Source: Candidatus Omnitrophota bacterium
GTDB lineage: Bacteria > Omnitrophota > Gorgyraeia > B26-G9
DNA: 64,000 nt
Reading direction: 5' to 3'
NCBI GenBank assembly: GCA_043805415.1
Contig: JAZDHZ010000034.1
Coordinates: forward strand, 101,478-165,477
Under the pieces are notes generated by a model, which was given only the letters and a program-made list of their open reading frames with translations, searched no databases and was not told the origin of the DNA. The position numbers and the translations under genes are program-made. Positions 6,256-32,602 of the stretch are shown here, in pieces (position 1 is the stretch's first letter; each line of letters begins with the position of its first letter).

Positions 6256-9200
6256 ATGTTTTTTAGAAAAAGAAATAGTTATCGCGTTAAAATCACAACT
6301 TTTATTATTTTACAGTGTTTTATAATTATAAATAGTCAAAGTATTTTTGCCCAGGAACAGCGGATTGTTTTAAGCCGCCAGCAAACAAGTACTCTTTCTC
6401 CGCACTTAAGCATCGGAATGAACTTGATTCAAGCAATTTTTTCCGAAAAAAGTCAACAGCCGATTGCCGCATCCAATCTTCCCGGAACACTGATATCATT
6501 GCGTGATACCGGAAGTATCAAAGAATTATTAAGCGGCAAAGACGTATTTTTGAATGACCTTTGGGCTAGAAAAACCTTAGGAGTACCCACGGCAATCAGT
6601 AGCCTGCGCAGTGAAGATAATAATTTTGATTTATGGGATTGGGGAAAAGGGGACATGGGTGAATCCAGCCGCCAGCATATTTTATGGTTAGCCAAGAATG
6701 GCTTTTCCCGCTGGATGCGCTTACCTAACCGGAAAACCCGGGCTTTATTCGGAGACCCCAGCCCCTATGCTTCACGCAGCGCGTTTGCCGGGGAAGATTC
6801 GGATATTGCTGTGCCGGAAGTGGAGGAATTTATTAATTCAAAACAAGCGCAGGCTTGGTATGAGCAAAATAAAAACCGGATTAAGGATTTACATAATGCG
6901 AATAGAGTAAATGGAATGGAAGTAGCGAGATTGAAAAATGAGGCTTTGTGGCTGGCAATGGAGTATTTTAAAGAAAATCATTTAAATAAAAATACTTCGC
7001 GCGGTAAAGCTTTTGATAGTTTTTTAAATGATAAAGATAATGACTGGGTAAGTGAATACGCGGAATATATGGCCATAAGCGAATATTACTGGGATACAAA
7101 AAAAGCTGTTTTTTTTGAGATAAATGAAGATATCTGGTCAAACATCGACCAAAAATTAAAAGGCCTGGTGCATGACCTGAACGTGGCCATAAGCACTGAT
7201 AAAATTAAAGATGTCGGGCGTTTATATGAAATGATTGATGATTTTTTCGCGCAGTATTACCAGAATAGTATTGTGGCAAACGAAACCGATATCTTTAGAT
7301 TGAATATTTATCAGTCATTGCTGGACAAAATAAAACAGGGAATTTTAAAAGACCTTGTGCGGGGCAATATTAAATCGCTTGTTGAGGCAGATGAACCGGA
7401 ATGCGCGAAAATACTTTTGGATGGTTATGAGCGTTCCAAACAAGCGTTTCGCTATGATATCAAAGACGCGATTGGCCAGGAATGTATGGCTGACTGGAGA
7501 AATTGGGACAATGCCGGATTGGTGGAGCGCGATCCTATTGTTTTAGCCCAATTCCGGGAAAAACTGGAAGATAAAATATTGTTTCATAAGTACGCGCAGT
7601 TTATTTTTAATGAGCAGGAAAAAAACATGAAAGAATTTGCCAACAGCAATGGCATTGCCATAGAAGGAGATATTCCTTTTTATGTGTCAACCATAAGCTG
7701 TGAAACCTGGGTGTATAAAGATAAGATATTCCGGCTTGATCCGAAAAACCGCTATCAGCAGATGGCTGACAGCGGAGCGCCGCCAGACCAGTATGACCGC
7801 GAATACGGACAAAACTGGGGCGGGACTCCTTATTATATAAATGCGGCGTTTAAGCAATTTTTCTATAAACGCACAAAACATGAATTAAAGAACGCGGATG
7901 GTATCAGGATTGATCACTTCCGGGCGCTTAATGATTTCTGGGTAATTCCTCATGGCAAGCTTGGCCGGGACGGTAAGTTTGAAGATGGGCCAAAAGATGA
8001 ATTATTGCAGCCTTTGCTTAATCTGGCATTGGGACAGTTTAAACGTTTTTTTGCCGAAGATCTGGGCTCATATCTGGAAGGAGTCTGGGATCTGATGCGG
8101 GATAATGAAGTTAAGGGCTTTCGGGTAGCGATATTCGGCCATGGTGATGATGATGACATAGTTCATCGGCAATATTCCGGGCAGATTGCTTTTTCCGGCA
8201 CGCATGATACTCAGACCTGGTTTGGCGCTTGGAATCAATGGGATAGTGTTAAACGGAGAATATTCCTGGACAGGTTTACGCATGATGATATTCCGGAGAT
8301 TTGGCAGCGCTTAACATCTGAACAGAGAAAAGGGTTTTTAAAATACCTTAATTATTTAGTAAAGCAGTTAAAAGCAGATACAGCAAACATAAACAAACAT
8401 AGCGAGTTTCAATCTGAAAGCAAAGATTTTTTCACAGAGAATAATTTTAAAACGCAGTTGAAAAAAGTCCGCGTTATTACAAGGAGTTTGGTTGATCTTG
8501 AAGAATTGCCATTTGGCGTGCAAACCGCTGTTTTCGGAATCCTGGCTTTTTCCGAAGCAGATACAGTATTTCTGCCGATGCAGGATATATTCCGGCAGGG
8601 TGAAGAGTTTCGGATAAATGTTCCGGGCAGGCCCGGAGATTGGGGCTACCGCCATCCTTATACCGGACAGGAATTGAATAAAGCAATAAATGAAGAAATA
8701 AAAAAAGCTGATGAATTAATGCGGCTGCTGGCGCAAACTTCCGGCCGGGATGTTAGCGTGCCTTTGTACAAAAAAGGCCAAGGCGTGCATATTCTGGGTG
8801 TTTCTCCGGGTGTTAATGCCAAGAAGATGTGCAAACCAGGCGAGGAGTTTATTATCTGGGCGGCAGTACAGGGTGATAAACCAGCTAAGGTTAATCTGCT
8901 GACAAATATGCCTGAGCATAATGGCGCGTATCCTAAAGAACAGGCAGTGGCCATGGAATTAGTAAAAGAATTAAAGAGCGGAACCTATCTTTATGGAGTA
9001 AGAATAAGAGCAACACAGCCAGGCAAATGGGGAGTCGCGGTTGAGGCGGATAATGTAAGAGCCGGAGAGGTTAAGGAGAATACCAGTCTGGTTGTAAGCG
9101 CTTTGGATAAAATAGCGCCTTTGGCTAAAGAACAAGAAGCTGTGCTGCGGATCGCGGCCGGGATTTCCAAGGAAAAACTGCAAAGGATTTTAAATGAGTT

Positions 9201-11184
9201 GAATCCTGATTTGGCGCAGGCCCTGCGGCAGGCATTAAAAAATTATCAGGTAGAATATGCCGGTAATGATGAGGAAAAAATCATTAATCCCAGCGGACTG
9301 GATAAAGATTTATTATATGCGAATGTGAATTTAATCCGCGAAAAATTACTTAACCTTGATTACCAACAGTTAATCAAGGAAAATTATCCTGCTTTGAATA
9401 ATAAACTTATTGCTGAGTATATGAACAGGTCGGGATGGTATTCCGCGGCAGTGCCAAATAAAATAGCGCAGACTTTGCTTAATATCGCGGTTTTACCTGG
9501 AAATCCAGAGTCTGTTATGGAAAGTCTTACCACTATTCTTGGCCACGACAACACTATTAGCGGGGAAAAGCGGGTATTATTAGATCAGGCGTTTGCCAAT
9601 GCCGCCGCGATTGCTCATGACTCGGTATTTAGAAAAGGAGATTTGTTTGTCTTAAACAAGTTTAATGATCCTGAAGCTAATCAGAAGGTGCTGTCTTTTG
9701 CCCGGTATATGGGAAATGGCAGAAAGGCGATGGTAATCAGTAATTTCAATGACTCGCGCATTAACGGAACCCTTTTGCTCAATCAGCATAATTTTGACAA
9801 AATATTTAATATCTCCAGCACTCCAGGCAGTTATTATGCTTTGATTGACAGGGTAAGCGGAGAAATATACCTGCGTGAAGGAAAAGATTTGATCGCGCAT
9901 GGTTTGTATTTTGATCTTCCGGCTCAGTCCACGCATGTTTTTATGGTTCAGAGTTTACAGGATAATACAGCCAATGTTTTGCGGTCTAAATGTAATTATT
10001 ATAATGGCAAATCTCTGCCGCTGGAAGAAATTCTTTCGCTATTAAATAATTTTGGGCTGACTTTGGATTTTCCCTGTGTGGGAAAAACAGCGCGGGCTTT
10101 TGTTCTCCAGGGTCTTTTAAACAATGTTCCGGCAAATCAATTGATCCAGGCTTTTAAAAACAATCCGGAAATCAAGATAATCGAATTTGGGTTAAACCCG
10201 GCGGAAATCGCCGCTGAGATTAGCAAATTAGCGCAAGAGTATCAAGCTGATAAGCAAGTTCAGGCTTTATGCCAGGGCCTGCGGTTTTTAAATCAAAGAG
10301 GAGCATTAAATGAAATAAATCTTGTCCTGGTTTTAAATCAGGACAAAACATCAGTTGAGGCTGTTCAGTATTTTGATCATGGTTCAAAAAGCAGGAAAAG
10401 TTATTTGTATGTTAATTTGTCGCGGCTGAATCTGGATTCAAATAATAATTCTGAAACTAAACTTTCCGCCGCGTTAATAATCGGCGCGCGGATATCACGC
10501 CAAGGGTCGATCGCGGATTATGAATTAAGCCGAACCCTTAAAGCATTTTTAGCGCTTTGGGCGCGAGACGACGCGACTTTGCCAGGGTTAATCGACAGTG
10601 AACACAAAAGGATAAAAGGCATGTTGGAATATCTTGAAACAAATCTTAATTCAGTAATAGATGAATGGAAGCTGCCGTTTCATTATAACCTGGGACATGA
10701 TACGCTGTTAAGCCACTCTTTAAGGCGCGTAGTCATGGATTTGTTTTTAAAACAAAATACTGATAATCAAGTCAGTTTAGCCACTGTGCATAATTTTGCT
10801 TATTTCTTGGCGTATTATTTGGCTGATTCCGGACAGGCAGATAAGCTTCGCGATATTTTGCTTCAAGGATTTTCTGGAAAAAAAGCATCTTTTTATGAAC
10901 AATATTTTCTTACCAGCTTTATCTCCGGAGCACTGGTTTTAAGGGACAGCAGCATAGACGCGATTTTTATTGATTTACTGGAAAATCCTTTGCCGCAAAC
11001 GGATCTTGCCTTGCGGGAAAAAATTATAAAAACAATGTGCGGTCTAAACCGTTTTGATTTAAAATTAAACAAAATCTCAGTCAAAGAGTTGGGGGCGGTT
11101 CTCCAATCCGGCAAAGCTATTGAATCACTTCCTGAGGCAACAGTCGCGATCAGGCAGTATCAGGCGATTGGACAGGCGATTTAA
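6256..11184 (+). CDS. giant terminal-signature family protein carrying a GH77 4-alpha-glucanotransferase (amylomaltase) domain
   Basis: Leader 'FIILQCFIIINSQSIFA', N-box 'TLSPHLSIGMNLIQAIF', tail 'GQAI-stop'. GH77 blocks 'GDIPFYVS', 'GAPPDQYDREYGQNWGGTPY', 'GIRIDHFRA', 'FAEDLG' and 'GTHDTQTW' lie at nt 7666-8220. AAAGGAG Shine-Dalgarno sequence. Confidence 0.9.
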   Translation: MFFRKRNSYRVKITTFIILQCFIIINSQSIFAQEQRIVLSRQQTSTLSPHLSIGMNLIQAIFSEKSQQPIAASNLPGTLISLRDTGSIKELLSGKDVFLNDLWARKTLGVPTAISSLRSEDNNFDLWDWGKGDMGESSRQHILWLAKNGFSRWMRLPNRKTRALFGDPSPYASRSAFAGEDSDIAVPEVEEFINSKQAQAWYEQNKNRIKDLHNANRVNGMEVARLKNEALWLAMEYFKENHLNKNTSRGKAFDSFLNDKDNDWVSEYAEYMAISEYYWDTKKAVFFEINEDIWSNIDQKLKGLVHDLNVAISTDKIKDVGRLYEMIDDFFAQYYQNSIVANETDIFRLNIYQSLLDKIKQGILKDLVRGNIKSLVEADEPECAKILLDGYERSKQAFRYDIKDAIGQECMADWRNWDNAGLVERDPIVLAQFREKLEDKILFHKYAQFIFNEQEKNMKEFANSNGIAIEGDIPFYVSTISCETWVYKDKIFRLDPKNRYQQMADSGAPPDQYDREYGQNWGGTPYYINAAFKQFFYKRTKHELKNADGIRIDHFRALNDFWVIPHGKLGRDGKFEDGPKDELLQPLLNLALGQFKRFFAEDLGSYLEGVWDLMRDNEVKGFRVAIFGHGDDDDIVHRQYSGQIAFSGTHDTQTWFGAWNQWDSVKRRIFLDRFTHDDIPEIWQRLTSEQRKGFLKYLNYLVKQLKADTANINKHSEFQSESKDFFTENNFKTQLKKVRVITRSLVDLEELPFGVQTAVFGILAFSEADTVFLPMQDIFRQGEEFRINVPGRPGDWGYRHPYTGQELNKAINEEIKKADELMRLLAQTSGRDVSVPLYKKGQGVHILGVSPGVNAKKMCKPGEEFIIWAAVQGDKPAKVNLLTNMPEHNGAYPKEQAVAMELVKELKSGTYLYGVRIRATQPGKWGVAVEADNVRAGEVKENTSLVVSALDKIAPLAKEQEAVLRIAAGISKEKLQRILNELNPDLAQALRQALKNYQVEYAGNDEEKIINPSGLDKDLLYANVNLIREKLLNLDYQQLIKENYPALNNKLIAEYMNRSGWYSAAVPNKIAQTLLNIAVLPGNPESVMESLTTILGHDNTISGEKRVLLDQAFANAAAIAHDSVFRKGDLFVLNKFNDPEANQKVLSFARYMGNGRKAMVISNFNDSRINGTLLLNQHNFDKIFNISSTPGSYYALIDRVSGEIYLREGKDLIAHGLYFDLPAQSTHVFMVQSLQDNTANVLRSKCNYYNGKSLPLEEILSLLNNFGLTLDFPCVGKTARAFVLQGLLNNVPANQLIQAFKNNPEIKIIEFGLNPAEIAAEISKLAQEYQADKQVQALCQGLRFLNQRGALNEINLVLVLNQDKTSVEAVQYFDHGSKSRKSYLYVNLSRLNLDSNNNSETKLSAALIIGARISRQGSIADYELSRTLKAFLALWARDDATLPGLIDSEHKRIKGMLEYLETNLNSVIDEWKLPFHYNLGHDTLLSHSLRRVVMDLFLKQNTDNQVSLATVHNFAYFLAYYLADSGQADKLRDILLQGFSGKKASFYEQYFLTSFISGALVLRDSSIDAIFIDLLENPLPQTDLALREKIIKTMCGLNRFDLKLNKISVKELGAVLQSGKAIESLPEATVAIRQYQAIGQAI

Positions 11185-11185
11185 T

Positions 11186-14100
11186 ATGTCAGGAATTTTT
11201 AAAACTAAAATTTTAAATAGATTTCTCTGTCTGGTTATTTTGCAGATATTTCTTGTTTCCAATTTTTCCTGGGCCGCGGATGATTTGCGCGCGAATGATT
11301 TAGTTTATTCCAGCGCAACGCTTTCTCCTTCGCTTCAAATCAGCGCTGATGCGCTAAAACAATATTTTGCCCAATCCTTTGATTTAAAAACCGCGGCAAA
11401 TATAGATCCGGTTATAAAAGATATTTGCTTAGAGCTGTATAAGGCCAAGGATAAAACCACAAAAATAGAAGTTCTGGCCCTTGAGCAAGGCTATAGAGTA
11501 AAGATCAGGACTCAGAGCAATACGCCGCTTGTTTTACATTGGGGGTTTAATAATTGGCAAAAGCCTTTTAAGGAAATCTGGCCCCAGGCAGAGAATATCC
11601 GCACTTATTTTGATGAGCAGACCAAAGCAATGCGGACCATAGTCGAGGCTTCAGCTGAGGGAGATTATGTTTTTAATATTGATATCCCCTGGGAATTAGT
11701 TTCAGGAATAAACAATATTGATTTCACCTTCTTTTGCCCAGAAACCAAAGAATATAAGAAAGCAATTGAAAATAAGGATTATGTTGTGCCGGTTTCTAAT
11801 GTCTTGAACCTGGCCTTGGCGCGCTTGGCTGAAAATGCCGGGGCAGATGATCCTGAAAAAAAGCACGATCTGCTTAATTTGATAAACAAAAGGCTGGCTG
11901 CGGCCAAAGATTCAGCGGAAATAGATGAAAACAATATTCCTTTGTTTTATGACGCGCATGAAAATATTATTACCCAGATTGTGAAAAACAAAGCAGGAAT
12001 CAGAATTGATTTCTGGGTTGTAAGTAATGAGCCGCTGGTTTTACATTGGGGAATAAATGATTGGCAGTTGCCGCCAAAAAGCATTTGGCCGGACCGGACA
12101 TTATATAAAACCCGGGCTTATGAAAAAAAAGCAGTGCAAACTCAGATGCATTTGGCTTCTAAAGACGGTTTGTACCAGACCTCGATTTACATCCCTAACC
12201 AGAATTTAAAAGAAGTTAAAAACATCAAGTACAATGTACATTATCCAAATAATGGGTATTGGGATAATAATAATGAAGAGGATTATAGTTTATCGCTGCA
12301 AGCCCAGGATCTTATAGCCGCTTTGCTGCCTTACGCGACAGGCAGATTCGCTGCCCACATAAACGCCAAACAAGCTCGCGGCTTGTTAAAGAACATGGCG
12401 TTTTTCTACGCTGAGAATATGAATTACACTGATTTGTTAAAGCTTTTTCAGGGGATGGAAGGCATTGCCCCTGGGGATGATCTTGAAAAAAAAGATGTTT
12501 TGGGATTAATCCTTATTGCCAAATTAATGAACGAAGGCGCGGTTTGGGATAGTGACAAAGCTAAGATTATTATCAGTAAACAAAAGATCAGCGCCGCGAT
12601 AGCGGAGTTGATTGATAAACTTGACCCCTTAAGTGTGCAGTGGGCATTATATATATTCGGACTGCTTGACCCTTCCTGGGTCTCAATCCTTACGCATCAG
12701 CTTGATTATAAGCAGATATACCAGGATGTGCAAAACAGCAAGATCAAAGACCTGCCGAAATTTATCCAAGGGATAATCAACAGTTATGATGATTTGGAAG
12801 GAGCGCCGCAGGTTCTTTCCGCTGAGAGTATTGATGAAACCTGCCTGATCATAAAATTGAAATTCAATGATCAGATCATCAGTACAAAATGGGGCTATCC
12901 GACAAAACAGCAAAAGTATTATTATCAAAATGGGATTTTTGAACTAAGAGATTTCGGGGGAAATGAATTTTCGCCGGTAGGCCGTAAGCTTTCGCGTTAT
13001 GTGGATAAAGAAGTGATAAAAACCCAGATCTCCAGGCTGCGTGGCAAAGGCAAAAAGGCGATTGTTGACGGAATTTCCTGGCAGTCTCCGGAAGCGCTTA
13101 ATTCGGATAATTATATGTATTATCATCATAGTCTGCTGGAAAAAGACGCGGATGTCAGGAATTTATTGCTTTCCCGTGGTTCTTCCACGATCTTAGAACT
13201 TCCGGACGGGAAAAAAGCCTGGGTATTTCATCGGCCTGATTCATCAGATCAGCTTTCGCCTAATCTTAAATTCGGAACAAAGGCAGCGGAATACTGGAGA
13301 AATTATTGGCTGGAGTATTATAAATATTTTATCAATGAATTTGACGTGGATGGATTCAGGGTGGATTTACCCGGAGAGTTGAATCATCATGGAGATTATT
13401 CGGTATTTAAGAGTGTTTGTTTTGATATAGTGCGGTACGCGGCGGCAAAAGGCAAAAAAATATATTTTATTTTAGAAACATATCATGGGTACGCGAATAT
13501 CTGGGGCTGGGATGAGTTTTCCGCGTTAAATCATGATCCGCAGATAGCGCAATACGGCTATAAACCTTTCCGCTGTTATTATAAGCCGGTAATGACCAGT
13601 ATTTACCGCGGCAGCGCGTTTGATCTAAGAGCTGCTTTTGAACGCATAGCCGGCAGTGTTCAGGAATTGGTTATTTCAATTACTAATTTTGACGAGAAAA
13701 AAGCCGAGGATATTATTCCTGAAAAACAAAGGCTTAAGCGTTATATGGAGCTTTTGTATAATTTTGCCCGCGCGGGATTTGATGTAATGATTTATTTACG
13801 GGATTTAGGTCTGGGCGATATTTTGCCGATGTGCGGCGGAGATCGGGTTCTCTGGGGCGGAAAGCTGAGGGTTGTGGCGCATAAGCCGGCTACTCCGCGT
13901 CAGTTTCGGCAGAGATTGGAGCAAAGCACAGGCGATTTGCTTGAACAATCTCCTTTATATCAGGCGTTTAAAAAATCGCCGCAAAGCCCCTTATCGCGGC
14001 TGTTCTTCCGCGGCAATAAGTTAGTTTTTTATCAGCCGGGAAAAACTCCGGAAGTGTTTGATCTGGATAAGATGGCTAAGCCTGCTCCACCGGTAAAAGT

Positions 14101-15142
14101 TATGGACAGTGAGGAGGATATAAATATTTGGCTGCAGCAGCAGGTTTATTCATTAACAAATAATGAGCCGCAAACCCAAGCCTTAAGAGAAATTGAAAAT
14201 ACTTTAAAACGATTTAAGCATAGTGCAAGTGCAATGGCGGGAAAAGCTGTTTTGGCTCTGGTCTGTTCTGAGACTAAGAATTTCGCGGTTTGGGATCAGG
14301 CAAAAGGCCAAACTCAATGCCTGCGCATGCCGGTAAATAAAGTATTGGCCATAAAAAATGACCATGCTTTTGTTGTGGATATTAAACAAGCTGGCAAAAG
14401 CGAATCCCGCAGAATCCCGGCGCTGCAAATCAAGCAAAGCGGCAAATATTTGGCAATGGTTTTTGGCTTGGCTCCGGGTAAATACAGGTTTAATTTTTTG
14501 TGGCAGGAAAAACATGAAAACCAGGGCTGGGAAGAAGGCAATGGCTATGAGCTTGAAGTCAGTTCTCCGAAGACCGGGCAACCAGAGCTGGCGGTCTATA
14601 TCCCGCGTTTATCCGCTGAATATTTAAGGGATTGGGATGAAATGTTTTATCAGGCAAAAGATGCTGGCCGCAATCTGCTGACCGGAGATATGCTTACAAA
14701 GGGAATGCTTGAAAATATAGAATCCTCGATTGATTTTACCCTGCGTTATGAGTATGGCCGGGAGATTTTAGAACAAATTAAAGACAAAAAGAAAAAGCAG
14801 GTTTTCAATATTTTATATAATCAAATTTCGCAAAACCCGCGAGGCCGATACAGTTTACTGCATCATCACCATGAAAAAGATTTTTTTAAATTAGCGGAAA
14901 CTGTGCTTGAGAGTATCCCGGGTTTAGCAAGACCAGAGGCAGCCCCAATATGGCAATATTTGGACGCGCTCAAACAAGCGGATAATCCTGACCAAGGAGA
15001 ACAAAGCCAAATAGCCGTAAATATAAAACTGCTTGGTTTTATGTCTGGTTTGTTCGCGCAGATCGAAGCCCTGTCCGCGGCTAAACCCCTTGAGCTTTGG
15101 CTTAATATTGAAGCGGAGTTTTTGATTGGACAGGCAATATAG
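11186..15142 (+). CDS. terminal-signature family protein with GH13-like alpha-amylase-family core and two starch-binding-like modules
   Basis: The ATG lies 1 nt after the upstream TAA. Leader 'FLCLVILQIFLVSNFSWA', N-box 'TLSPSLQISADALKQYF', tail 'GQAI-stop'. 'VDGFRVDLPGEL', 'YFILETYHG' and 'ITNFDE' resemble GH13 regions II-IV. Tandem 'PLVLHWG.N.WQ.P' modules. Confidence 0.85.
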   Translation: MSGIFKTKILNRFLCLVILQIFLVSNFSWAADDLRANDLVYSSATLSPSLQISADALKQYFAQSFDLKTAANIDPVIKDICLELYKAKDKTTKIEVLALEQGYRVKIRTQSNTPLVLHWGFNNWQKPFKEIWPQAENIRTYFDEQTKAMRTIVEASAEGDYVFNIDIPWELVSGINNIDFTFFCPETKEYKKAIENKDYVVPVSNVLNLALARLAENAGADDPEKKHDLLNLINKRLAAAKDSAEIDENNIPLFYDAHENIITQIVKNKAGIRIDFWVVSNEPLVLHWGINDWQLPPKSIWPDRTLYKTRAYEKKAVQTQMHLASKDGLYQTSIYIPNQNLKEVKNIKYNVHYPNNGYWDNNNEEDYSLSLQAQDLIAALLPYATGRFAAHINAKQARGLLKNMAFFYAENMNYTDLLKLFQGMEGIAPGDDLEKKDVLGLILIAKLMNEGAVWDSDKAKIIISKQKISAAIAELIDKLDPLSVQWALYIFGLLDPSWVSILTHQLDYKQIYQDVQNSKIKDLPKFIQGIINSYDDLEGAPQVLSAESIDETCLIIKLKFNDQIISTKWGYPTKQQKYYYQNGIFELRDFGGNEFSPVGRKLSRYVDKEVIKTQISRLRGKGKKAIVDGISWQSPEALNSDNYMYYHHSLLEKDADVRNLLLSRGSSTILELPDGKKAWVFHRPDSSDQLSPNLKFGTKAAEYWRNYWLEYYKYFINEFDVDGFRVDLPGELNHHGDYSVFKSVCFDIVRYAAAKGKKIYFILETYHGYANIWGWDEFSALNHDPQIAQYGYKPFRCYYKPVMTSIYRGSAFDLRAAFERIAGSVQELVISITNFDEKKAEDIIPEKQRLKRYMELLYNFARAGFDVMIYLRDLGLGDILPMCGGDRVLWGGKLRVVAHKPATPRQFRQRLEQSTGDLLEQSPLYQAFKKSPQSPLSRLFFRGNKLVFYQPGKTPEVFDLDKMAKPAPPVKVMDSEEDINIWLQQQVYSLTNNEPQTQALREIENTLKRFKHSASAMAGKAVLALVCSETKNFAVWDQAKGQTQCLRMPVNKVLAIKNDHAFVVDIKQAGKSESRRIPALQIKQSGKYLAMVFGLAPGKYRFNFLWQEKHENQGWEEGNGYELEVSSPKTGQPELAVYIPRLSAEYLRDWDEMFYQAKDAGRNLLTGDMLTKGMLENIESSIDFTLRYEYGREILEQIKDKKKKQVFNILYNQISQNPRGRYSLLHHHHEKDFFKLAETVLESIPGLARPEAAPIWQYLDALKQADNPDQGEQSQIAVNIKLLGFMSGLFAQIEALSAAKPLELWLNIEAEFLIGQAI
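11460..12295 (+). repeat. two tandem ~110-aa starch-binding-like modules (intragenic duplication)
   Basis: 'NTPLVLHWGFNNWQKPFKEIWP' (about nt 11520) and 'NEPLVLHWGINDWQLPPKSIWP' (about nt 12029), each followed by 'A(M/V)(R/Q)T...' and a Y/W-rich beta region. Confidence 0.6.
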
Positions 15143-16038: not shown

Positions 16039-17487
16039 ATGAAGAAAATTCTGGTTTTATTAAGCTTTTGTTTATTGGTTAATCTGAACGCGAATGCGAT
16101 TGCTTTGGCTGGCGAAGAGACAAGCACGGCTTTAGATCAAAAACAAGTGGCGATTACGATTTACAATAATAACCTGGGCTTAGTTAAAGATGTGCGGGAG
16201 ATTAAATTAAGTTCCGGCGTGCATGATCTGAAATTCATGGATGTGGCCAGTCAAATCAGGCCGGTGACAGTGAATATAAAATCATTATCCGCGCCGGATA
16301 AACTCTCTGTGCTTGAGCAGAATTATGAATATGATCTATTGAACGCGCAAAAACTTTTGGATAAATATGTGGGCAAACAGGTAAAACTATTGGATAAAAA
16401 TTATTATACCGGTAAAGAAGAAATAGTAACCGCCGAGCTTTTAAGTAATAATGGTTCGCCAATATACAAAATTAATAATGAGATCCAGGTTAATCCTTTG
16501 GGCCGGATAATTCTCCCGGAGATTCCGGATAACTTAATTGCCAAGCCCACGCTGATCTGGATGTTGAAAAACAGCAATCCCAAGCAGCAGGATATTGAAG
16601 CCTCGTATTTGACTAATGGGATTAACTGGAAGGCTGACTATATCGCGGTGATTAATCAGGATAATACAATCGCGGATTTAAGCGGCTGGGTTACGATTGA
16701 GAATAATAGCGGAGCAACATATAAAAATGCTCAGATAAAACTGGTTGCCGGAGATGTAAACCGGGTGCAGGAAGATCGGGGTTATGCTGGCCGGGCAAAG
16801 GCAAGCAGGATGATGGAACAAGACGCGGTGAAAAGCTTTGCCGAAGAAGCGTTTTTCGAATATCATTTATATACATTGCAAAGACAATCGACAATTAAAG
16901 ATAATCAAACCAAGCAGCTCGAATTATTAAAAGCAATGGATATTCCGATCAATGAAAAATTGATTTATTATGGAGCGGATTATTATTTCCGCAACCAGTA
17001 TACCGGACAGGCGCAGTCAAAGGAAAAAATCGGGGTGTTTTTGGAAATTGAAAATAAGCAGAAAAATAATTTAGGCATGCCGCTTCCGGCCGGAGTTATC
17101 CGCGCTTATAAAAAAGATAAAGAAGGCAGTCTGCAATTTATCGGAGAAGATAAAATCGATCATACTCCTAAAGATGAGAAAATCACAATTAAAATGGGCG
17201 ATGCTTTTGATGTAGTTGGAGAAAGAAAACAGCTGGAGTATCGGATTCTTTCAAAAAACGCCGCGCAGCGTTTTGATACAGAGCAGCAATGGCAGATCAA
17301 GCTGCGCAATCACAAGGAAAAACCAGTGGAAGTGGAAGTTGTTGAGCCGATTCCCGGAGACTGGCAAATAGTTAATGCTTCGGAAAAATATATTAAAACC
17401 GAAGCCAATACCATTAAATTTGTGGTAAAATTAAATAAAGATGAAGAAAAAACAATTGATTATCAAGTAAAAATCAGATACTGGTAA
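16039..17487 (+). CDS. DUF4139 domain protein (MuiA-like), secreted
   Basis: Signal peptide 'LVNLNANAIALA'. 'VAITIYNNNLGLVKDVREI' and the overall beta-rich layout match my recollection of DUF4140/DUF4139. GGAGG Shine-Dalgarno sequence. Confidence 0.7.
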   Translation: MKKILVLLSFCLLVNLNANAIALAGEETSTALDQKQVAITIYNNNLGLVKDVREIKLSSGVHDLKFMDVASQIRPVTVNIKSLSAPDKLSVLEQNYEYDLLNAQKLLDKYVGKQVKLLDKNYYTGKEEIVTAELLSNNGSPIYKINNEIQVNPLGRIILPEIPDNLIAKPTLIWMLKNSNPKQQDIEASYLTNGINWKADYIAVINQDNTIADLSGWVTIENNSGATYKNAQIKLVAGDVNRVQEDRGYAGRAKASRMMEQDAVKSFAEEAFFEYHLYTLQRQSTIKDNQTKQLELLKAMDIPINEKLIYYGADYYFRNQYTGQAQSKEKIGVFLEIENKQKNNLGMPLPAGVIRAYKKDKEGSLQFIGEDKIDHTPKDEKITIKMGDAFDVVGERKQLEYRILSKNAAQRFDTEQQWQIKLRNHKEKPVEVEVVEPIPGDWQIVNASEKYIKTEANTIKFVVKLNKDEEKTIDYQVKIRYW

Positions 17488-17668: not shown

Positions 17669-20600
17669 ATGTATTTTAAAAAGCTCGAACTCTTTGGATT
17701 TAAATCTTTCGTTGATAAAACAACTCTTATTTTTGAACCAGGCGTAACCGCGATTGTTGGCCCCAATGGTACAGGAAAAAGTAATATTTCTGACGCGATT
17801 AAATGGGTATTGGGAGAACAAAGTGCCAAGTCTATGCGTGGGGCAAAGATGGAAGATGTTATTTTTAATGGCACAGAAACCCGCCCTCCGGTAAATATGT
17901 CAGAAGTTTCGCTGACGCTTTCTAATGAAGAAAGAGTTTTGGCGATTGATTATGATGAAGTAACTGTAACCAGAAGGCTTTATCGCTCAGGAGAAAGTGA
18001 GTATCTTCTTAATAAAACCCCGGTTAGGTTAAGAGATATAAATGAACTATTAATGGGCACTGGCATAGGCACGGAATCGTATTCTTTGCTCGAGCAGGGC
18101 CGGATTGACGCGATTATTAGTTCCAAGCCGGAAGAACGCAGAGTGGTGTTTGAAGAAGCCAGCGGCATTACCAGATATAAGAAACAAAAAAATGAGGCAA
18201 TGCGCAAGCTGCAGGCAACAGAAGAAAACCTTTTACGGGTTAATGATATAATTGTAGAGGTTAATCGTCAGTTAAATTCCATAGCGCGTCAGGTAAGTAA
18301 AGCGCGCCGCTTTCAGGAAAATTTTGATGAACTTAAAACATTAGATACGCAGTATACATACCTTCAATATAAACAGCTTAAGGAAAAAAATGATTTACTT
18401 GCCAGTGAAGAGACTGCTTTTCATGCTGAGCAGGCGGGATTAGAAAAAGAGCTTGCTGTTTTTTCTGAAGAGTTTGACGCCTTAAAAGTAACCCTTTCTG
18501 AAGTGGAACATAATTACAGTCACTTGAACAATCAATTTGTCAGGACTACTTCGCAGATTGAGCAGAATGTTCACGCTGTGTCCATTAATAATGAACGCAT
18601 CCAGGAATTCAGCCAAAGAGTGCGGGATTATAACCGCGATCTGGAAAACTCCCAAAAGAAAATCAAAGAACTGCAGGAGCAGATAAACCAACTGCAAATC
18701 CGGATTTCCGCTTTTTCCGACGAGAAAAGCGCGAAAGAACTTAATTTAAATTTACGCCAGACAACAATCGCGGAAATTGAAAACCAAATAAAACTCGCGC
18801 AAAAATCCGGAGAAGAAAACCGGATCGTGGCGGTAAAATTACTCAGTGAACACGCGCAGATTAAAAATGAACTGGCCAAGCTTTCGGCGAATATCAGCAA
18901 TGCTAACGCGCGCTTATTGCGGCTTAATCAGGAAAAAGCGAAAACTAATCAGGAACGCGAGAAGATTGACGCGGAATTAAAAAGCAAAATAGCGGAAGTT
19001 GAAAATTTAAGAGGTAAGGTTAATAAAGAAGAAGGCGACGCTCAGAATCTTAAAAATAATTATGAAGAGCTTAATACTCAGATAAAAGAGCTGGAAGTAA
19101 ATATCCAAGACAGCAAGCAAGCTTTAGTCGGCTGTAAATCCCAGCTGGAAATGCTGGAAAGATTGAGCAAGGAATACGAATGGTTTTCCAGCTCAGTGAA
19201 ATCATTTATGCTCCAAAAAGAAAACTATCCCGAAGCTTTTGCCGGAGTCCATGATGTACTGGTAAATCTTATGGAGGTAAAGCCGGGATATGAAGTTTGC
19301 GTGGAAACCGCGCTAGCCGAATACTTGCAGGCCGTTGTTGTTGATAGCCGACAAGTGGCTTTAAGGCTGAGAGAATTTCTTAATCAGCATAATATCGGCA
19401 GAATTCGGTTTATTACTCTGGATTCAATTCCGCAAATAGCTAATCAGCAGTCTCAGATTGAAAATACAAAGAATTTTTTAGAAGTAATTACCTGCGATGA
19501 TAAATACGCGAAAGTTTTAGCGTTTCTGGTTAAGAACACTTTTATTTTACAAGAAAATATTTTTGACAATCCGTCAAATCCTTTGACTAATATCAAAGAT
19601 ACGCTGAGTGCTGAGCCAGATGCTTCTGGCTTGCTTGAAGCTGAGCTTTTGTTTTCTTTTAAAACAAACGCGGCCAATAGCGTTAAAATAGTCGGCGATT
19701 TTAATCGATGGAATGCTTCTTTTGACAGTGATCTGGAACGCAAAGACACGGAGCTTTGGCAAAAGGTTCTAAAGCTCGCGCCAGGACGCTATACTTATAA
19801 GCTGGTGGTTGATGGCCAATGGATCATTGACCCGAACAATCCGCTTAAAGAAATAGATGTAAACGGACATGAAAACTCAGTTATCGAAGTGCTGGCAAAA
19901 TCCCAGGATGCTTTGGTTGCTGAGGCTGATAAGCCGGCGGCATTTGATTTTAATTTTCTGGAAACGCTGGTGAGTATGAGCGGCGAGCTGCATTCAACCG
20001 CGGGATTAATCAGCCGGCCGGTTGCTGACCAGACAACAGGCCTGTTTTATCAAAAAGCAAAAATAAGGCAGCTTAAGCAGGAAAGTGTCGGCCTGGAACA
20101 AGCCGTAGTTAAATATAAACAAGAAATCGACACTAAAATCCAGCAGCTTAAGTTTGTGGAAACAGAATTTACTCAATTAAATGATGCTTTGCACGAAGAA
20201 AAGATTAGTCTGGCGAATCGGGACTCGGAAAAATCCAGTATTGAAATAAACCGGAAAAAACTTGTGGATGAGCTTTTAGTCATTGATCTGGAAATTGATG
20301 AAACAACTCTTGATGTTCAGGAGTTTGAAGAAAAAGAAGCGGCTAAGAGAGCTAGGCTGAGCATTGTGGATCAGGAAATAGTCGGCAATGAACAGACAAT
20401 GGCAAGTAATCATCAATTGATCGGGATAAAAAACAAGGAGCGGGAAGAGCTTTTAGTTATTATCGCGGAAATGAAAACAGAATTTTCTTTGCTCAATGAA
20501 CAGGAAGAATCTTTAAATCAGAGTTTTTCAATGCTGTATAATACGCTCAAAGAATTAACCCTGAACTCGGAAGAATTTGTCCGGTATAAGGATGAGAGTA

Positions 20601-21625
20601 TAAAGCGGATCGAGGCGCTGACGATTCAGGTAAGTGAACTGAATAAATCCACGCTTGTCCTTGAGCAGGAAAAAGAAGAAATCGGCATGTCTTTAGAAGA
20701 ATTTAAAGAAAAACGCGGTCAATTATTAAGTAAATTTGAAGATATCCAGAATAAAATAAAAGAAAAAGAAAACCGATTAAATTATACCAAGAATCGGATT
20801 CGCGATATTGATGTTAAAAAAGTCGAGATGAATTTTAAAACCGAGTCATTGGTAAATTCAGCGAGGCAGGCTTATAAAATCGAACTGGAAACCCTGGAAC
20901 TTGAATTGCCGGAAGATATAGACTGGCAGGCGCGGAAAGAACAGATCGATGGTTTAAAAAATAAGATTGACCGGATTGGGGCAGTTAATCTGGCGGCAGT
21001 AGAAGAAGAGGAAGAATTAAGACAGCGCGCTGACTTTCTTAATAGTCAAAGCGAGGATTTGTTCGCGGCTAAGCAGACATTAATGCAGGCAATCCAAAAA
21101 ATCAACCGCACAACTAAAGCGCTTTTTCTCGAGACTTTTGAGAAATCAAAAATCGCTTTTAAAGAGTATTTCAAGCTTTTATTCAGCGGCGGCGACGCGC
21201 AGCTTCTGCTTACCGAGGGAAAAGATGTTTTAGAATGCGGGGTGGAAATCGTGGTGCGGCCTCCAGGCAAAAGACTGCAAAGCATAACCCTGCTTTCCGG
21301 AGGCGAGAAAACGCTTACGGCAATTGCCTTATTGTTCGCGATTTTTAAGATTAAGCCAACACCGTTTTGCGTATTAGATGAAATGGATGCCCCCTTAGAC
21401 GAATCGAATATTGATCGGTTCACCCGGGTTTTACAGGAATTTTTGAAAAGCTCACAATTCATAATTATTACCCATAATAAAAAGACTATTTCCATGGCGG
21501 ATGTTATGTATGGGGTAACAATGGAGCAGCCGGGTATTTCTCGGCTGGTGAGTGTGAAATTCAGCGAATTTAAAGACTCGGATAAATTAAAACAAGAGCT
21601 TATTCCTGAAGAAGCTATAATCTAG
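17669..21625 (+). CDS. smc: chromosome partition protein Smc, with an inserted CBM48-like module in the hinge
   Basis: N-terminal 'LELFGFKSF...IVGPNGTGKSNISDAIKWVLGEQS', signature 'LSGGEKTLTAIALLFAI', Walker B 'FCVLDEMDAPLD', and long coiled coils. Confidence 0.95.
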   Translation: MYFKKLELFGFKSFVDKTTLIFEPGVTAIVGPNGTGKSNISDAIKWVLGEQSAKSMRGAKMEDVIFNGTETRPPVNMSEVSLTLSNEERVLAIDYDEVTVTRRLYRSGESEYLLNKTPVRLRDINELLMGTGIGTESYSLLEQGRIDAIISSKPEERRVVFEEASGITRYKKQKNEAMRKLQATEENLLRVNDIIVEVNRQLNSIARQVSKARRFQENFDELKTLDTQYTYLQYKQLKEKNDLLASEETAFHAEQAGLEKELAVFSEEFDALKVTLSEVEHNYSHLNNQFVRTTSQIEQNVHAVSINNERIQEFSQRVRDYNRDLENSQKKIKELQEQINQLQIRISAFSDEKSAKELNLNLRQTTIAEIENQIKLAQKSGEENRIVAVKLLSEHAQIKNELAKLSANISNANARLLRLNQEKAKTNQEREKIDAELKSKIAEVENLRGKVNKEEGDAQNLKNNYEELNTQIKELEVNIQDSKQALVGCKSQLEMLERLSKEYEWFSSSVKSFMLQKENYPEAFAGVHDVLVNLMEVKPGYEVCVETALAEYLQAVVVDSRQVALRLREFLNQHNIGRIRFITLDSIPQIANQQSQIENTKNFLEVITCDDKYAKVLAFLVKNTFILQENIFDNPSNPLTNIKDTLSAEPDASGLLEAELLFSFKTNAANSVKIVGDFNRWNASFDSDLERKDTELWQKVLKLAPGRYTYKLVVDGQWIIDPNNPLKEIDVNGHENSVIEVLAKSQDALVAEADKPAAFDFNFLETLVSMSGELHSTAGLISRPVADQTTGLFYQKAKIRQLKQESVGLEQAVVKYKQEIDTKIQQLKFVETEFTQLNDALHEEKISLANRDSEKSSIEINRKKLVDELLVIDLEIDETTLDVQEFEEKEAAKRARLSIVDQEIVGNEQTMASNHQLIGIKNKEREELLVIIAEMKTEFSLLNEQEESLNQSFSMLYNTLKELTLNSEEFVRYKDESIKRIEALTIQVSELNKSTLVLEQEKEEIGMSLEEFKEKRGQLLSKFEDIQNKIKEKENRLNYTKNRIRDIDVKKVEMNFKTESLVNSARQAYKIELETLELELPEDIDWQARKEQIDGLKNKIDRIGAVNLAAVEEEEELRQRADFLNSQSEDLFAAKQTLMQAIQKINRTTKALFLETFEKSKIAFKEYFKLLFSGGDAQLLLTEGKDVLECGVEIVVRPPGKRLQSITLLSGGEKTLTAIALLFAIFKIKPTPFCVLDEMDAPLDESNIDRFTRVLQEFLKSSQFIIITHNKKTISMADVMYGVTMEQPGISRLVSVKFSEFKDSDKLKQELIPEEAII
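19646..19891 (+). other. AMPK-beta/CBM48-type glycogen-binding module inserted in the SMC hinge
   Basis: 'FSFKTNAANSVKIVGDFNRWN...ELWQKVLKLAPGRYTYKLVVDGQWIIDPNNP' follows the CBM48 pattern (V.l.GsFn.W...W...L.pG.Y.YKf.VDG.W..DP). Confidence 0.7.
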
Positions 21626-21657: not shown

Positions 21658-22851
21658 TCAGATAAATTCTGTGCTGAACATGCACACCCGATTTCTTCCG
21701 GTTTCTTTAGCTACATACAGAGCCTTATCAGCAAAAGCAATTAAATCATCTTTGTTCGAGGCATCCTGGGGAAAACTGGCGACTCCGATACTGATCGTGA
21801 TTCTTTTGGAAGGTTGTCCCTCTTTATAATGGCAAGGGTGAGCGGCAGTTAATTTTCTTATTCGCTCAGCAGAGGAATAAGCTTTTTCTTTAAATGTTTC
21901 CGGCAGAATAATCGCGAATTCCTCTCCGCCATAGCGGGCGACCAGATCAACTTCCCGGCAGGTGGACTGGAGAATTTCCGAGATTTCCTGCAATAATTTA
22001 TCTCCGGCCAAATGCCCCAGGCTATCATTAAATTTCTTAAAATGATCGATATCGATCATTAATAAGCTGACATGGCGGTTAAACCGGTTTGCTCTTTTAA
22101 CTTCTTCCGCTAATTGGTGCTGAAAATATCCATAGTTCCAAAGACTTGTCAGGCGGTCGGTGTTGGATAAGATAAGGGTTTTTTCAAATTCCTGAGAGTT
22201 GCCGATTGCCAGTCCGGCATTATTGGCAAACATAGTCAGTTTCCAGATATCATCTTTGGTAAGATCTCTTTTGGAATAGAAATTATCAACCAGCATTACT
22301 CCGAGAACCCGGTTTTTTGCCATTAAAGGAATCGTCAGACCGTATTCCATATTAAATAAGGAGATGATCGGGTCGTTTTTTTAAATTTGTTTTTTATACG
22401 TAGGGGTTATTATCTCAAACTGTTTTTTCTGAAGCACTGTTTGGGCTAAAATTCCCGAACTTGGATTAATCGGCAGCTTGATATTTTTAACATTATTATT
22501 AAAATGCGAATCCTGTTTGCGGCCGAATTCTTTATAATCTTTTAACAGCTCCTCAAGAGTTTTATGCGTGTTTTCAATAAACTCCCAAATATTTTTCGCG
22601 TCAGCTTCTGAATCAGGGCCAATACCCATCCGGCCTTCCAGGATATTTTCTTTCTCATTAACCAGAAAAACCATAGCCCGGTTAAACCCCAGGCCTTCGC
22701 CGGAAGTAACACTGGTAAGAATAATGTATAAAATTTCATCCAGCCTGAGAGTCGAGCTCATGGCCATGCTGATTTCATAAAGCATCAGCAGTTCGGCGTG
22801 ATATTTATCTTGTAGGTTTTTCGGTGTTTCTTCGATTGACATAGCCTTCAT
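21658..22851 (-). pseudogene. GAF-GGDEF diguanylate cyclase interrupted by a single in-frame TAA
   Basis: ORFs 22851-22381 (first half of the GAF domain) and 22350-21658 (rest of GAF plus 'RYGGEEF') share one frame. They are separated by TAA (22383-22381) plus 10 sense codons: '...TYKKQI*KNDPIISLFNMEYG...'. There is no Shine-Dalgarno sequence before ATG 22350. Confidence 0.65.
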
Positions 22852-32560: not shown

Positions 32561-32602
32561 ATATTCTCTAGGGCAATATGATTGGGTAAATGGAACAAGA
32601 TA

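Follow-up and report, generated by a model that had tools for sequence, protein, structure and literature searches.

The open reading frame (ORF) at positions 17669..21625 (+) of the window (the whole 64-kb stretch of DNA that was analyzed) encodes 1,318 aa followed by a stop codon, the length given in the first-pass annotation, and its product is identical to NCBI entry MFH1062768.1, named there only "AAA family ATPase [Candidatus Omnitrophota bacterium]." The protein matched TIGR02168 (SMC_prok_B) along its full length with 960.2 bits (cutoff, 567.35), in two stretches split at an insert in the hinge. Pfam identified SMC_N at aa 3 to 1291 (E value, 1.6e-71) and the hinge domain PF06470 (SMC_hinge) with 84 bits across profile positions 2 to 106 of 116. 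The Walker A (GPNGTGKSN, aa 31-39), LSGGEK (1209-1214), Walker B (VLDEMD, 1235-1240), and H-loop (THN, 1268-1270) motifs were invariant in a 38-sequence alignment (A2), where the invariant columns of the C-terminal head were L1209-E1213, D1237/E1238/D1240, and T1268-N1270. The gene order plsX-fabD-fabG-acpP-fabF...DUF4139-smc-GAF/GGDEF-Peptidase_MA-HemN was kept in four loci (L081, L082, L083, and L089), and the synteny around smc was common to insert-bearing and insert-free orthologues. In B. subtilis, smc likewise lies downstream of fatty acid synthesis genes, the order there being plsX-fabD-fabG-acpA-rnc-smc. Neither ScpA nor ScpB was found among the ORFs scanned within the window. Sequence and gene order identify the locus as the housekeeping smc orthologue, which encodes a condensin-type chromosome-organizing ATPase with no other disruption of its ATPase, arms, or hinge fold (Table 1). 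With the bacterial Smc of Smc-ScpAB (B. subtilis and T. maritima) it shares the equivalog match, the ATPase motifs, arms of 329 and 350 aa, and a predicted hinge that can be superposed on 5h69 and 1gxl; it differs in carrying a CBM48 insert for the peripheral helix and Ser-[Lys/Arg]-Pro for the terminal Gly-Gly.

Table 1. Features of the smc product and their positions in the window; identity is the mean pairwise value within the clade.
Feature	Residues (aa)	Position	Strand	Evidence
ATPase head, N-terminal half	1-165	17669..18163	+	Walker A; identity 0.91
Ascending arm, assigned coiled-coil	166-494	18164..19150	+	TIGR02168 alignment; 329 aa throughout clade, identity 0.54
Hinge part a	495-627	19151..19549	+	SMC_hinge aa 525-627; pLDDT mostly >90; Foldseek matches 5h69 and 1gxl, E ~1e-10
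N-linker	628-657	19550..19639	+	Variable, acidic, and probably flexible: identity 0.12, 6-33 aa, mean charge -2; pLDDT <50 at aa 637-650
CBM48/AMPK-beta-type core	658-745	19640..19903	+	PF16561; AF2-predicted beta-sandwich, pLDDT >90; 86-88 aa, identity 0.46
Sugar-contact equivalents	W681; K711; W718; N736	19709-19711; 19799-19801; 19820-19822; 19874-19876	+	Mapped onto rat AMPK beta1
C-linker	746-765	19904..19963	+	Variable and acidic; identity 0.12, 13-25 aa; pLDDT <50 at aa 749-758
Hinge part b, closing strands LVSMSGELHSTAGLISRP	766-790	19964..20038	+	Aligns with 1gxl residues 166-210
Descending arm, assigned coiled-coil	791-1140	20039..21088	+	TIGR02168 alignment; 350-353 aa, identity 0.54
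ATPase head, C-terminal half	1141-1318	21089..21622	+	LSGGEK, Walker B, H-loop; identity 0.87

The insert lies between 'AKVLAFLVKNTFILQENIF' and the hinge-closing 'LVSMSGELHSTAGLISRP', a placement already proposed in the first-pass annotation and in agreement with the translation. It occupies a loop of the second hinge subdomain, where ~88 aa of CBM48 and ~50 aa of linkers replace a peripheral helix. The first hinge part takes in the first subdomain and the bulk of the second one, its last strand being TFILQ, and two stretches of the T. maritima hinge 1gxl (chain residues 10 to 124 and those aligned with hinge part b) flank the insert. In canonical SMC hinges, the C-linker site is taken by a short helix (DLxDAxxLL). 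Positions 19646-19891, the span first noted, translate in frame to 'LLFSFKTNAANSVKIVGDFNRWN...VNGHENSVIEV' (aa 660-741), and the opposite strand contains stops; the refined limits of the core and of both linkers are those of Table 1.

The proposal that this segment is a CBM48 module of the AMPK beta type was upheld by profile and structure searches and by comparison across related SMCs. AMPK1_CBM (PF16561; cutoff, 26.8 bits) gave significant matches to the whole protein (50.0 bits; E value, 3.4e-13) and to the excised segment (54.2 bits; E value, 1.7e-14), compared with 21 to 25 bits for the generic CBM_48 family PF02922 (25 bits on the excised segment). Using phmmer against PDB, the insert matched the CBMs of AMPK beta1 and beta2 (E value, ~1e-6). 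The predicted module superposed on the AMPK beta1 CBM 1z0m_C with a target-normalized TM score of 0.90 (rmsd, 1.5 A over 84 columns; 31% identity) and on 4yef_C with the same target-normalized score of 0.90. No Pfam match to AMPKBI, the C-terminal alpha/gamma-interaction domain of AMPK beta, was identified; downstream of the CBM lie hinge strands and coiled coil. Judged from these domains, the smc product is not an AMPK beta subunit and has the CBM type alone in common with one. The likeness to AMPK beta CBMs (PF16561; 1z0m, 2f15, and 4yef) extends to the fold and to the equivalents of W100, K126, W133, and N150, whereas the kinase complex and the alpha/gamma-binding domain have no counterpart, and the module is a loop insertion in place of the N-terminal or internal linear domain of the AMPK type.

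AlphaFold modeling (pLDDT, 87.8; pTM, 0.61) predicted an independently folded beta-sandwich carried on two unconstrained acidic linkers. Because the linkers had pLDDT values below 50 and the pTM was 0.61, the model does not dock the module against the hinge in any fixed way.

The source is a metagenome-assembled genome and the database name of the protein is uninformative, which could point to a chimeric contig, a case that the first-pass annotation had warned of, or to a paralogous SMC-like protein. Either artefact is scarcely credible. An in-frame insert at the same site was identified in 23 distinct Omnitrophota SMCs (48 to 79% identical) from independent assemblies drawn from NCBI, JGI, ENA, and Logan, and the composition of the insert matches that of the host gene (GC, 0.42 versus 0.40; GC3, 0.38 versus 0.41), so the insert is not a chimera; the orthologous synteny and a TIGR02168 score well above its cutoff speak against a paralogue.

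The clade was monophyletic in 200/200 bootstraps, and divergence of the CBM was correlated with that of the rest of the SMC (r = 0.80; Mantel, 0/2000). At the level of these comparisons, the module has been passed down vertically with the SMC across a deep clade. The insert-free P0024 was nested within the clade in 200/200 bootstraps, and the branch position of P0026/27/29/30 was recovered in 6 to 15 of 200. The module was lost secondarily, with the smc locus kept, from one lineage at minimum and perhaps from a second; two or more losses, as in the first neighbor-joining tree, were not retained, since the bootstraps firmly back one (P0024). The module is dispensable, given that at least one lineage dropped it and retained the same smc locus. 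A different Omnitrophota SMC, P0091, contains an intein.

Among the 80 GTDB SMC loci listed, which were mostly non-Omnitrophota, none carried this CBM in a check that had a positive control. Unusually long Verrucomicrobiota SMCs were considered as carriers and rejected, as the canonical helix was present and the loop was free of insertion. Homologue searches with the hinge plus insert, and with a 23-sequence profile (A3) spanning strand, linker, CBM, linker, and hinge, returned short CBM48 proteins only; these searches missed even the identical P0007, their index seems biased to short proteins, and they are silent on CBM-bearing SMCs outside Omnitrophota. A representative-sequence search with the insert gave 6,895 matches, the best 150 of which were tandem-repeat CBM48 proteins with no SMC among them. 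This SMC probably falls in a 50%-identity cluster represented by a relative that lacks the insert, which would make that search uninformative on spread beyond Omnitrophota.

A second peculiarity of the hinge concerns the glycine motif G-x6-G-x3-GG, a hallmark of the dimer interface that is not strictly defining, which was absent from the clade. The clade motif reads G772-x6-[E/G]779-x2-S782-[K/R]783-P784, and S782-R783-P784 (20012-20020) stands where the canonical terminal Gly-Gly would be. Within the clade, Ser was found in 25/28 sequences, Lys or Arg in 23/28, and Pro in 25/28; outgroup Omnitrophota SMCs have GG. Insert-free members of the clade share the loss of Gly-Gly, which is therefore independent of the CBM, and with the whole clade lacking this dimer-interface motif, hinge behavior may be unusual. 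Loss of the basic DNA-binding patch that follows the hinge in B. subtilis was also considered and rejected, the net charge of the segment being, by inspection, like that of the outgroups.

Four AMPK beta1 residues that contact sugar were conserved in the module, as the first-pass annotation had suggested should be checked for Trp and Lys: the equivalents of W100 (W681) and K126 (K711) were kept in 23/23 sequences, that of W133 (W718) in 22/23, and that of N150 (N736) in 23/23. N150 is reported to be a carbohydrate-contact residue of AMPK beta1 (Polekhina et al. 2005). The published contact list comprises W100, K126, W133, L146, and T148, and mutating W100, K126, and W133 markedly lowered glycogen binding (PMC2642990). 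Equivalents of L146 (V731) and T148 (H734) were variable in the clade, the latter position being His, Asn, or Ile, and the ligand may for this reason be glycogen, maltodextrin, or another glucan. Autophosphorylation of T148 is reported to control the release of AMPK from glycogen (PMC4416872).

The loops of the B. subtilis Smc hinge accept peptide insertions, and the hinge itself can be replaced by the Rad50 zinc hook (PMC5344682). A mobile CBM48 could thus have landed once in a permissive hinge loop and persisted with little or no function, a scenario to which the intein in P0091, showing that insertions happen in Omnitrophota smc, and the loss of the module from at least one lineage whose locus otherwise looks unchanged would lend weight. 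This account is improbable, as the 88-aa domain has kept its length, a mean pairwise identity of 46%, and invariant ligand contacts, with linkers down to 12%, and has co-diverged with the SMC across the deep clade. The alignments point clearly to purifying selection on the module, comparable to that on the hinge. An insertion kept while the SMCs fall to ~50% identity also amounts to an evolutionary test of how far the hinge can be modified.

Glycogen tethering and repurposing for protein or DNA binding had been put forward in the first-pass annotation, and of these DNA binding is disfavored. SMC hinges bind DNA by positive residues near the hinge/coiled-coil transition (PMC4306524), and aromatic platforms are able to stack on bases, so the module might have come to serve the hinge as an additional surface for DNA. 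A negative net charge of the module in 20/21 sequences (mean, -5), together with the acidity of the two linkers, argues against this, and Pfam and NCBIfam scans gave no resemblance to a nucleic-acid-binding family; such a role is even less probable than a functionless insert. Tethering was the best supported of the functions proposed, with the contact residues kept in 22 to 23 of the 23 sequences.

The preferred reading, given a probability of roughly 0.45, is that an ancestor of this Omnitrophota lineage gained a complete CBM48 in a surface loop of the hinge and that the module acts as a flexible, bivalent alpha-glucan anchor, coupling SMC-held chromosomal DNA to cytoplasmic glycogen. An SMC dimer would present two flexibly tethered glycan sites at its hinge end, distal from the DNA-clamping heads and at the tips of arms ~47 nm long (the length of B. 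subtilis Smc). The affinity of a single CBM48 site for alpha-1,4/1,6-glucan would be weak (sub-mM to mM), but many chromosome-loaded dimers on one glycogen particle could provide high avidity. Chromosome-loaded SMC, and with it the nucleoid, would then be coupled to glycogen, and granules would stay and partition with segregating chromosomes and not phase-separate to one pole. Untethered E. coli glycogen builds up preferentially at the old pole, accompanied by asymmetry of both nucleoid position and division (PMC12706056).

Since the AMPK CBM48 also makes protein contacts and takes part in regulation, the module could alternatively be a sensor or an adaptor. As a sensor, the hinge CBM would bind glycogen or a branched oligosaccharide and thereby exert allosteric control over SMC, whether on arm opening, the hinge-DNA interaction, the ATPase, or loading, so that the carbon reserve would gate chromosome compaction or segregation, comparable to the inhibition of AMPK by glycogen via the beta CBM. 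The module belongs to the AMPK-beta subtype by its PF16561 score, its sugar-contact residues are kept, in AMPK the CBM has a regulatory, glycogen-sensing role (PMC2642990), and hinge DNA binding is tied to Smc arm opening (PMC4306524). Against this, the long linkers lack sequence constraint and the model has no confident hinge contact, a poor design for allosteric transmission; besides the sugar site no conserved surface was identified, and there is no kinase-like partner. A sensor is thus unlikely as the primary role, though it would be compatible with tethering.

An adaptor would recruit a protein partner, such as a glucan enzyme or a CBM48 repeat protein, or bind a non-glycogen ligand via its conserved aromatics. 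The AMPK CBM also packs on the kinase domain (4cfe and 5iso were among the fold matches), thousands of CBM48 proteins have varied architectures (tandem repeats and thioredoxin, esterase, and ParA fusions), and the variable equivalents of L146 and T148 would fit such a use. The invariant residues are nevertheless exactly the carbohydrate-stacking and hydrogen-bonding set, the most economical sign that sugar binding has been retained, and no candidate partner gene was kept beside smc across the clade. An adaptor seems slightly less likely again than a sensor.

SMC complexes are usually seen as pure DNA machines, with the hinge as a dimerization and DNA-contact element. Literature searches found no description of a CBM48 in an SMC hinge, in line with the impression recorded in the first-pass annotation. 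If functional, the module would make this the first natural SMC with a cargo-binding domain for something other than nucleic acid and, if the anchor reading is true, the first molecular candidate for a connection between glycogen granules and the nucleoid in bacteria. It would also suggest a route to reliable inheritance of storage granules in the uncultured and poorly understood Omnitrophota.

The anchor proposed here has precedents in architecture only. Bifunctional proteins tether polyhydroxybutyrate (PHB) and polyphosphate granules to the nucleoid, with granule-binding and chromosome-associating parts in one polypeptide (PhaM, PhaF, and PhaH for PHB; AlgP for polyphosphate) (PMC3556143; PMC13052382). 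The smc product matches this layout, joining a CBM48 with its sugar site kept to a complete SMC. A 2025 review of bacterial organelle positioning covers these nucleoid tethers and no glycogen positioning system (PMC13052382). PhaM, PhaF, PhaH, and AlgP bind DNA nonspecifically via histone-like or HhH tails, whereas here an ATP-driven, DNA-entrapping SMC ring would hold a putative glycogen cargo. Pfam and NCBIfam scans of the smc product identified no phasin-like N terminus, no histone-like or HhH tail, and no homology to these four proteins. Plant PTST is similar in carrying a CBM48 on a long coiled-coil scaffold and positioning alpha-glucan granules at a specific structure within the cell. 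It is a eukaryotic, plastidial protein unrelated to SMC, with a C-terminal CBM48, and recruits starch synthases without organizing DNA. PTST2, MFP1, and CBM48 are reported to act in starch granule initiation.

Three fusions of a ParA/MinD-type ATPase with CBM48 (P0279, P0282, and P0004) were also identified, each with a ~250-aa deviant-Walker-A ATPase and a C-terminal CBM that is 42 to 45% identical to the SMC module and has the same Trp/Lys/Trp triad. They resemble the SMC in joining a partitioning-family protein to a related CBM48 and differ in scaffold and in the terminal position of the CBM. The shared triad suggests glycogen as a cargo of nucleoid-based machinery, and the fusions hint at a wider glycogen-nucleoid link. 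More tentatively than the anchor itself, the SMC hinge may grip glycogen granules such that the chromosome machinery carries and partitions the store, or glycogen load feeds back on chromosome organization, and together with the ParA/MinD fusions it may represent an unrecognized class of nucleoid-based glycogen positioning.

Omnitrophota metagenome-assembled genomes generally encode glycogen synthesis (PMC8542988). Two to three genes upstream of smc in the window lie genes for a giant GH77 4-alpha-glucanotransferase and for a protein with two glucan-water-dikinase-type Ig/CBM domains; a 1,340-aa upstream protein had no match in the PDB sequence search. Linkage of smc to these glucan genes was considered as functional evidence and kept as context only, because it holds in the closest relative alone: the same genes adjoin smc in the 79%-identical relative and are absent from deeper clade loci, an adjacency at about the genus level.

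Using NCBIfam, the SMC of the window matched TIGR02168 (SMC_prok_B) at 960 bits (cutoff, 567), and the Pfam SMC_N profile spanned aa 3 to 1291. The SMC_hinge match covered aa 525 to 627, reaching only profile positions 2 to 106 of 116. AMPK1_CBM (PF16561) matched aa 667 to 744 (E value, 3.4e-13; 50 bits; cutoff, 26.8), and CBM_48 (PF02922) also exceeded its cutoff when the segment was excised. In phmmer searches of the PDB, residues 10 to 124 and 166 to 210 of the T. maritima hinge (1gxl) aligned N-terminal and C-terminal of the insert, respectively, and the AMPK β1/β2 CBMs 1z0m, 2f15, and 4yef aligned to the insert itself. The first-pass annotation had read a CBM48/AMPK-β-type module within the SMC hinge; both its position and its family assignment were borne out by the translated ORF and these profile matches. 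No open frame was identified on the opposite strand across the flagged interval, which contained stops. By all tests run, the protein is a bacterial SMC, with the hinge glycine motif as the one classical hallmark that it lacks. Both profile and fold place the insert in the CBM48/AMPK1_CBM group; as the C-terminal interaction domain is absent, it is not an AMPK β subunit.

Features of the smc region and neighboring genes in the window
Feature	Position (nt)	Strand	Residues or product	Remark
GH77 4-α-glucanotransferase protein	6256-11184	+	1,642 aa	GH77 domain only aa 411-801
Protein with glucan-water-dikinase-type domains	11120-15142	+	1,340 aa	two Ig/CBM domains (PF23166)
DUF4139 protein	16039-17487	+	482 aa	signal-peptide-like N-terminus; directly upstream of smc
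smc	17669-21625	+	1,318 aa	
N-linker			aa 628-657	
CBM core			aa 658-745	
Flagged interval	19646-19891	+	aa 660-741	in-frame translation LLFSFKTNAANSVKIVGDFNRWN...DVNGHENSVIEV
C-linker			aa 746-765	
Site of missing peripheral helix	19904-19963			
Ser-[Lys/Arg]-Pro	20012-20020		aa 782-784	replaces terminal Gly-Gly
GAF-GGDEF diguanylate cyclase gene	21658-22851	-	397 codons on readthrough	downstream of smc
In-frame TAA in GAF-GGDEF gene	22381-22383			single
ORF	29258-32560	+	1,100 aa	without Pfam match
ORF	32582-41542	+	2,986 aa	follows the 1,100-aa ORF

Alignment of SMC sequences placed the insertion point after the second-subdomain strand TFILQ (aa 624 to 627) and before the closing strands (LVSMSGE...), where canonical SMCs carry a short helix (DLxDAxxLL). 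The ATPase motifs were invariant (Walker A, GPNGTGKSN; signature, LSGGEK; Walker B, VLDEMD; H-loop, THN), and the coiled-coil arms were constant in length at 329 and 350 to 353 aa. An AlphaFold2 model of aa 495 to 815, built from a 45-sequence alignment (mean pLDDT, 87.8; pTM, 0.61), predicted two confidently folded bodies with connectors at pLDDT <50 (aa 637 to 650 and 749 to 758). The modeled hinge body resembled the solved SMC hinges 5h69 and 1gxl as well as cohesin and condensin hinges (E value, ~1e-10). The inserted body superposed on the AMPK β1 glycogen-binding domain 1z0m_C with a target-normalized TM score of 0.90 and an rmsd of 1.5 Å, sharing 31% identity over 84 columns.

A full-length SMC query against 5.8 billion proteins identified an identical entry on a 169.5-kb contig (MFH1062768.1, AAA family ATPase [Candidatus Omnitrophota bacterium]) and 22 more SMCs with PF16561 that were 48 to 79% identical, from NCBI, JGI, ENA, and Logan assemblies. 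All insert-bearing Omnitrophota are uncultured organisms. Their SMCs were 1,280 to 1,336 aa in length (two were partial), and MAFFT alignment found the module at an identical position in 23/23. An artefactual insert is contradicted by the same in-frame site recurring in 23 SMCs from several assembly sources and by a base composition matching the host gene (GC, 0.42 versus 0.40; GC3, 0.38 versus 0.41), and its probability is negligible. NCBI names most of the insert-bearing proteins AAA family ATPase, whereas relatives that lack the insert are called chromosome segregation protein SMC. The insertion seems to defeat the automatic naming, in part explaining why the architecture was overlooked.

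In a tree built from insert-free columns with 200 bootstraps, the insert-bearing SMCs and five insert-free relatives of ~1,200 aa were monophyletic (200/200). One of the latter, P0024, was sister to the insert-bearing P0014 and P0016 to P0020 (200/200). At least one secondary loss is therefore firm, and at least one lineage can dispense with the module. For P0026, P0027, P0029, and P0030, which also lack the insert, placement was supported by just 6 to 15 of 200 bootstraps, and a second loss is possible. Pairwise identity of the CBM tracked that of the rest of the SMC (r = 0.80; Mantel, 0/2000). Regarding the age of the insertion, which the first-pass annotation had left to alignment with related SMCs, this codivergence fits a single ancient gain and vertical inheritance thereafter. 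Among the matches listed, 80 SMC loci, mostly of other phyla, and their 10-kb flanks gave no match to a CBM HMM that, as a positive control, scored 128.9 bits on the SMC of the window. Within the loci and proteins that could be sampled, CBM-bearing SMCs thus appear confined to the clade. Long Verrucomicrobiota SMCs were considered as further carriers and rejected, having a loop without the insertion.

The hinge of the clade has further peculiarities. Throughout, insert-free members included, the classical motif G-x6-G-x3-GG has become G-x6-[E/G]-x2-S-[K/R]-P, with the second Gly usually Glu; GG was retained in outgroup Omnitrophota SMCs. The short peripheral helix has likewise gone from the entire clade, including P0024, P0026, P0027, P0029, and P0030. 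As both changes extend to insert-free members, the clade hinge is derived independently of the CBM. In B. subtilis Smc, hinge dimerization is essential, and peptide insertions in hinge loops, even a Rad50 zinc hook as replacement hinge, are tolerated (PMC5344682). Intein and LAGLIDADG domains (PF14890, PF14528) are present in another Omnitrophota SMC, P0091 (1,756 aa); insertions in SMC genes of the phylum are therefore of more than one kind.

Residue equivalences to rat AMPK β1 were taken from an HMMER alignment. The sugar-binding Trp and Lys residues, whose conservation the first-pass annotation had raised as a question, are conserved across insert-bearing sequences: W681 (W100 in AMPK β1) and K711 (K126) in 23/23 and W718 (W133) in 22/23. 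N736 (N150) was also present in 23/23, and V731 (L146) and H734 (T148) were variable. In AMPK β1, W100, K126, W133, L146, and T148 touch bound cyclodextrin, mutants bind glycogen markedly less, and the KD for β-cyclodextrin is ~0.3 mM (PMC2642990). The CBM core had a constant length of 86 to 88 aa and a mean pairwise identity of 46%, comparable figures being 40 to 53% for the hinge and 54% for the coiled coil. The linkers shared 12% identity and varied from 6 to 33 and from 13 to 25 aa. A constant core between drifting linkers identifies a selected domain on unconstrained tethers. This pattern contradicts a tolerated passenger, which is accordingly quite improbable. A glycogen-sensing regulator akin to AMPK is weakened by the unconstrained linkers and is unlikely, as is, slightly more so, a role as an adaptor for proteins or another ligand. 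Mean net charge was -5 for the core and about -2 for each linker; this acidity argues against a module that binds DNA, a very remote prospect. By weight, the alternatives thus rank as sensor, adaptor, passenger, DNA binding, and artefact.

Taken with the model, these data show an SMC and a CBM48 that are both complete, the CBM48 being flexibly attached at the hinge and looking competent to bind sugar. The module probably binds an α-glucan. All functional claims derive from the sequence and from a predicted model of the monomer. The favored reading, to which we assign a probability of roughly 0.45, is that the hinge CBM may link the chromosome to glycogen granules. Each SMC dimer would offer two weak α-glucan sites at arm ends distal to the DNA-clamping heads (B. 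subtilis Smc arms are reported at ~47 nm; PMC5344682), and a glycogen particle would be held through the avidity of many chromosome-loaded dimers. Glycogen and nucleoid could thereby be kept and partitioned together. Such a link would offset old-pole build-up of the type seen in E. coli, where glycogen collects preferentially at the old pole and both nucleoid position and division are asymmetric (PMC12706056).

Granule-nucleoid tethers include PhaM, PhaF, and PhaH, which act on PHB granules, and AlgP, which acts on polyphosphate granules (PMC3556143; PMC13052382). The CBM-SMC may share their tethering logic without homology to these proteins, and may act like the plant coiled-coil-CBM48 PTST proteins, to which it is related by domain only. 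An independent parallel comes from ParA/MinD-type ATPases of ~340 to 366 aa, among the nearest relatives of the insert, which combine a deviant Walker A motif (KGG[VC]GKT) with CBM48 at the C terminus (P0279, P0282, P0283, and P0004; loci L084 to L088). Their CBM48 was 42 to 45% identical to the SMC insert and kept the Trp/Lys/Trp sugar-contact triad. One cluster had 12 members on contigs of up to 346 kb; JGI calls it chromosome partitioning protein. Such fusions, on which no literature was found, suggest a ParA-type system that may position glycogen granules. Among the matches listed, the closest relatives were very numerous tandem CBM48-repeat proteins (P0001, P0127 to P0276), which are candidate donors of the module. 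These typically had four repeats in ~480 aa; one protein of 1,812 aa had 17 repeats, and another of 6,207 aa had 17 matched stretches. CBM48 was also fused to thioredoxin (P0278) and esterase (P0006) domains. The first-pass annotation knew of no carbohydrate-binding fold in an SMC hinge, and full-text literature searches likewise yielded no paper on CBM48/AMPK1_CBM in an SMC; neither glycogen nor SMC comes up in a 2025 review of how bacterial organelles are positioned (PMC13052382). What is new is an SMC carrying a cargo-type accessory domain, its function being proposed from sequence and model.

The surrounding gene order was plsX-fabD-fabG-acpP-fabF, acyl-CoA dehydrogenase, ETF, DUF4139, smc, GAF-GGDEF (opposite strand), Peptidase_MA, and HemN. 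It was common to insert-bearing P0023, P0021, and P0008 and insert-free P0024, identifying an orthologous housekeeping smc locus rather than a stray SMC paralogue. Bearing on the availability of an α-glucan substrate, both giant predicted α-glucan genes lie two to three genes upstream of smc, before DUF4139. There is a 65-bp overlap between the two ORFs, and for the 1,340-aa ORF the TTG start is uncertain. The 79%-identical relative (L089) has two giant GH77 genes at the same place; these were absent beside smc in the loci of deeper relatives. Glycogen synthesis is reportedly encoded by Omnitrophota MAGs (PMC8542988). The 1,340-aa protein had no sequence match in the PDB, and a GH13-like motif (GFRVDLPGE) was recognized by eye.

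The DUF4139-smc adjacency also occurs in the relatives' loci L082, L083, and L089 and is kept throughout the clade, whether or not the CBM is present. The GAF-GGDEF gene, broken by a TAA in the window, is one intact gene of ~394 to 397 aa in L081, L083, and L089; the TAA could reflect a nonsense mutation or a pseudogene, or else an error of sequencing or assembly. Further downstream lie the 1,100-aa and 2,986-aa ORFs, giant genes being among the traits reported for Omnitrophota (bioRxiv 10.1101/2023.11.21.568195).
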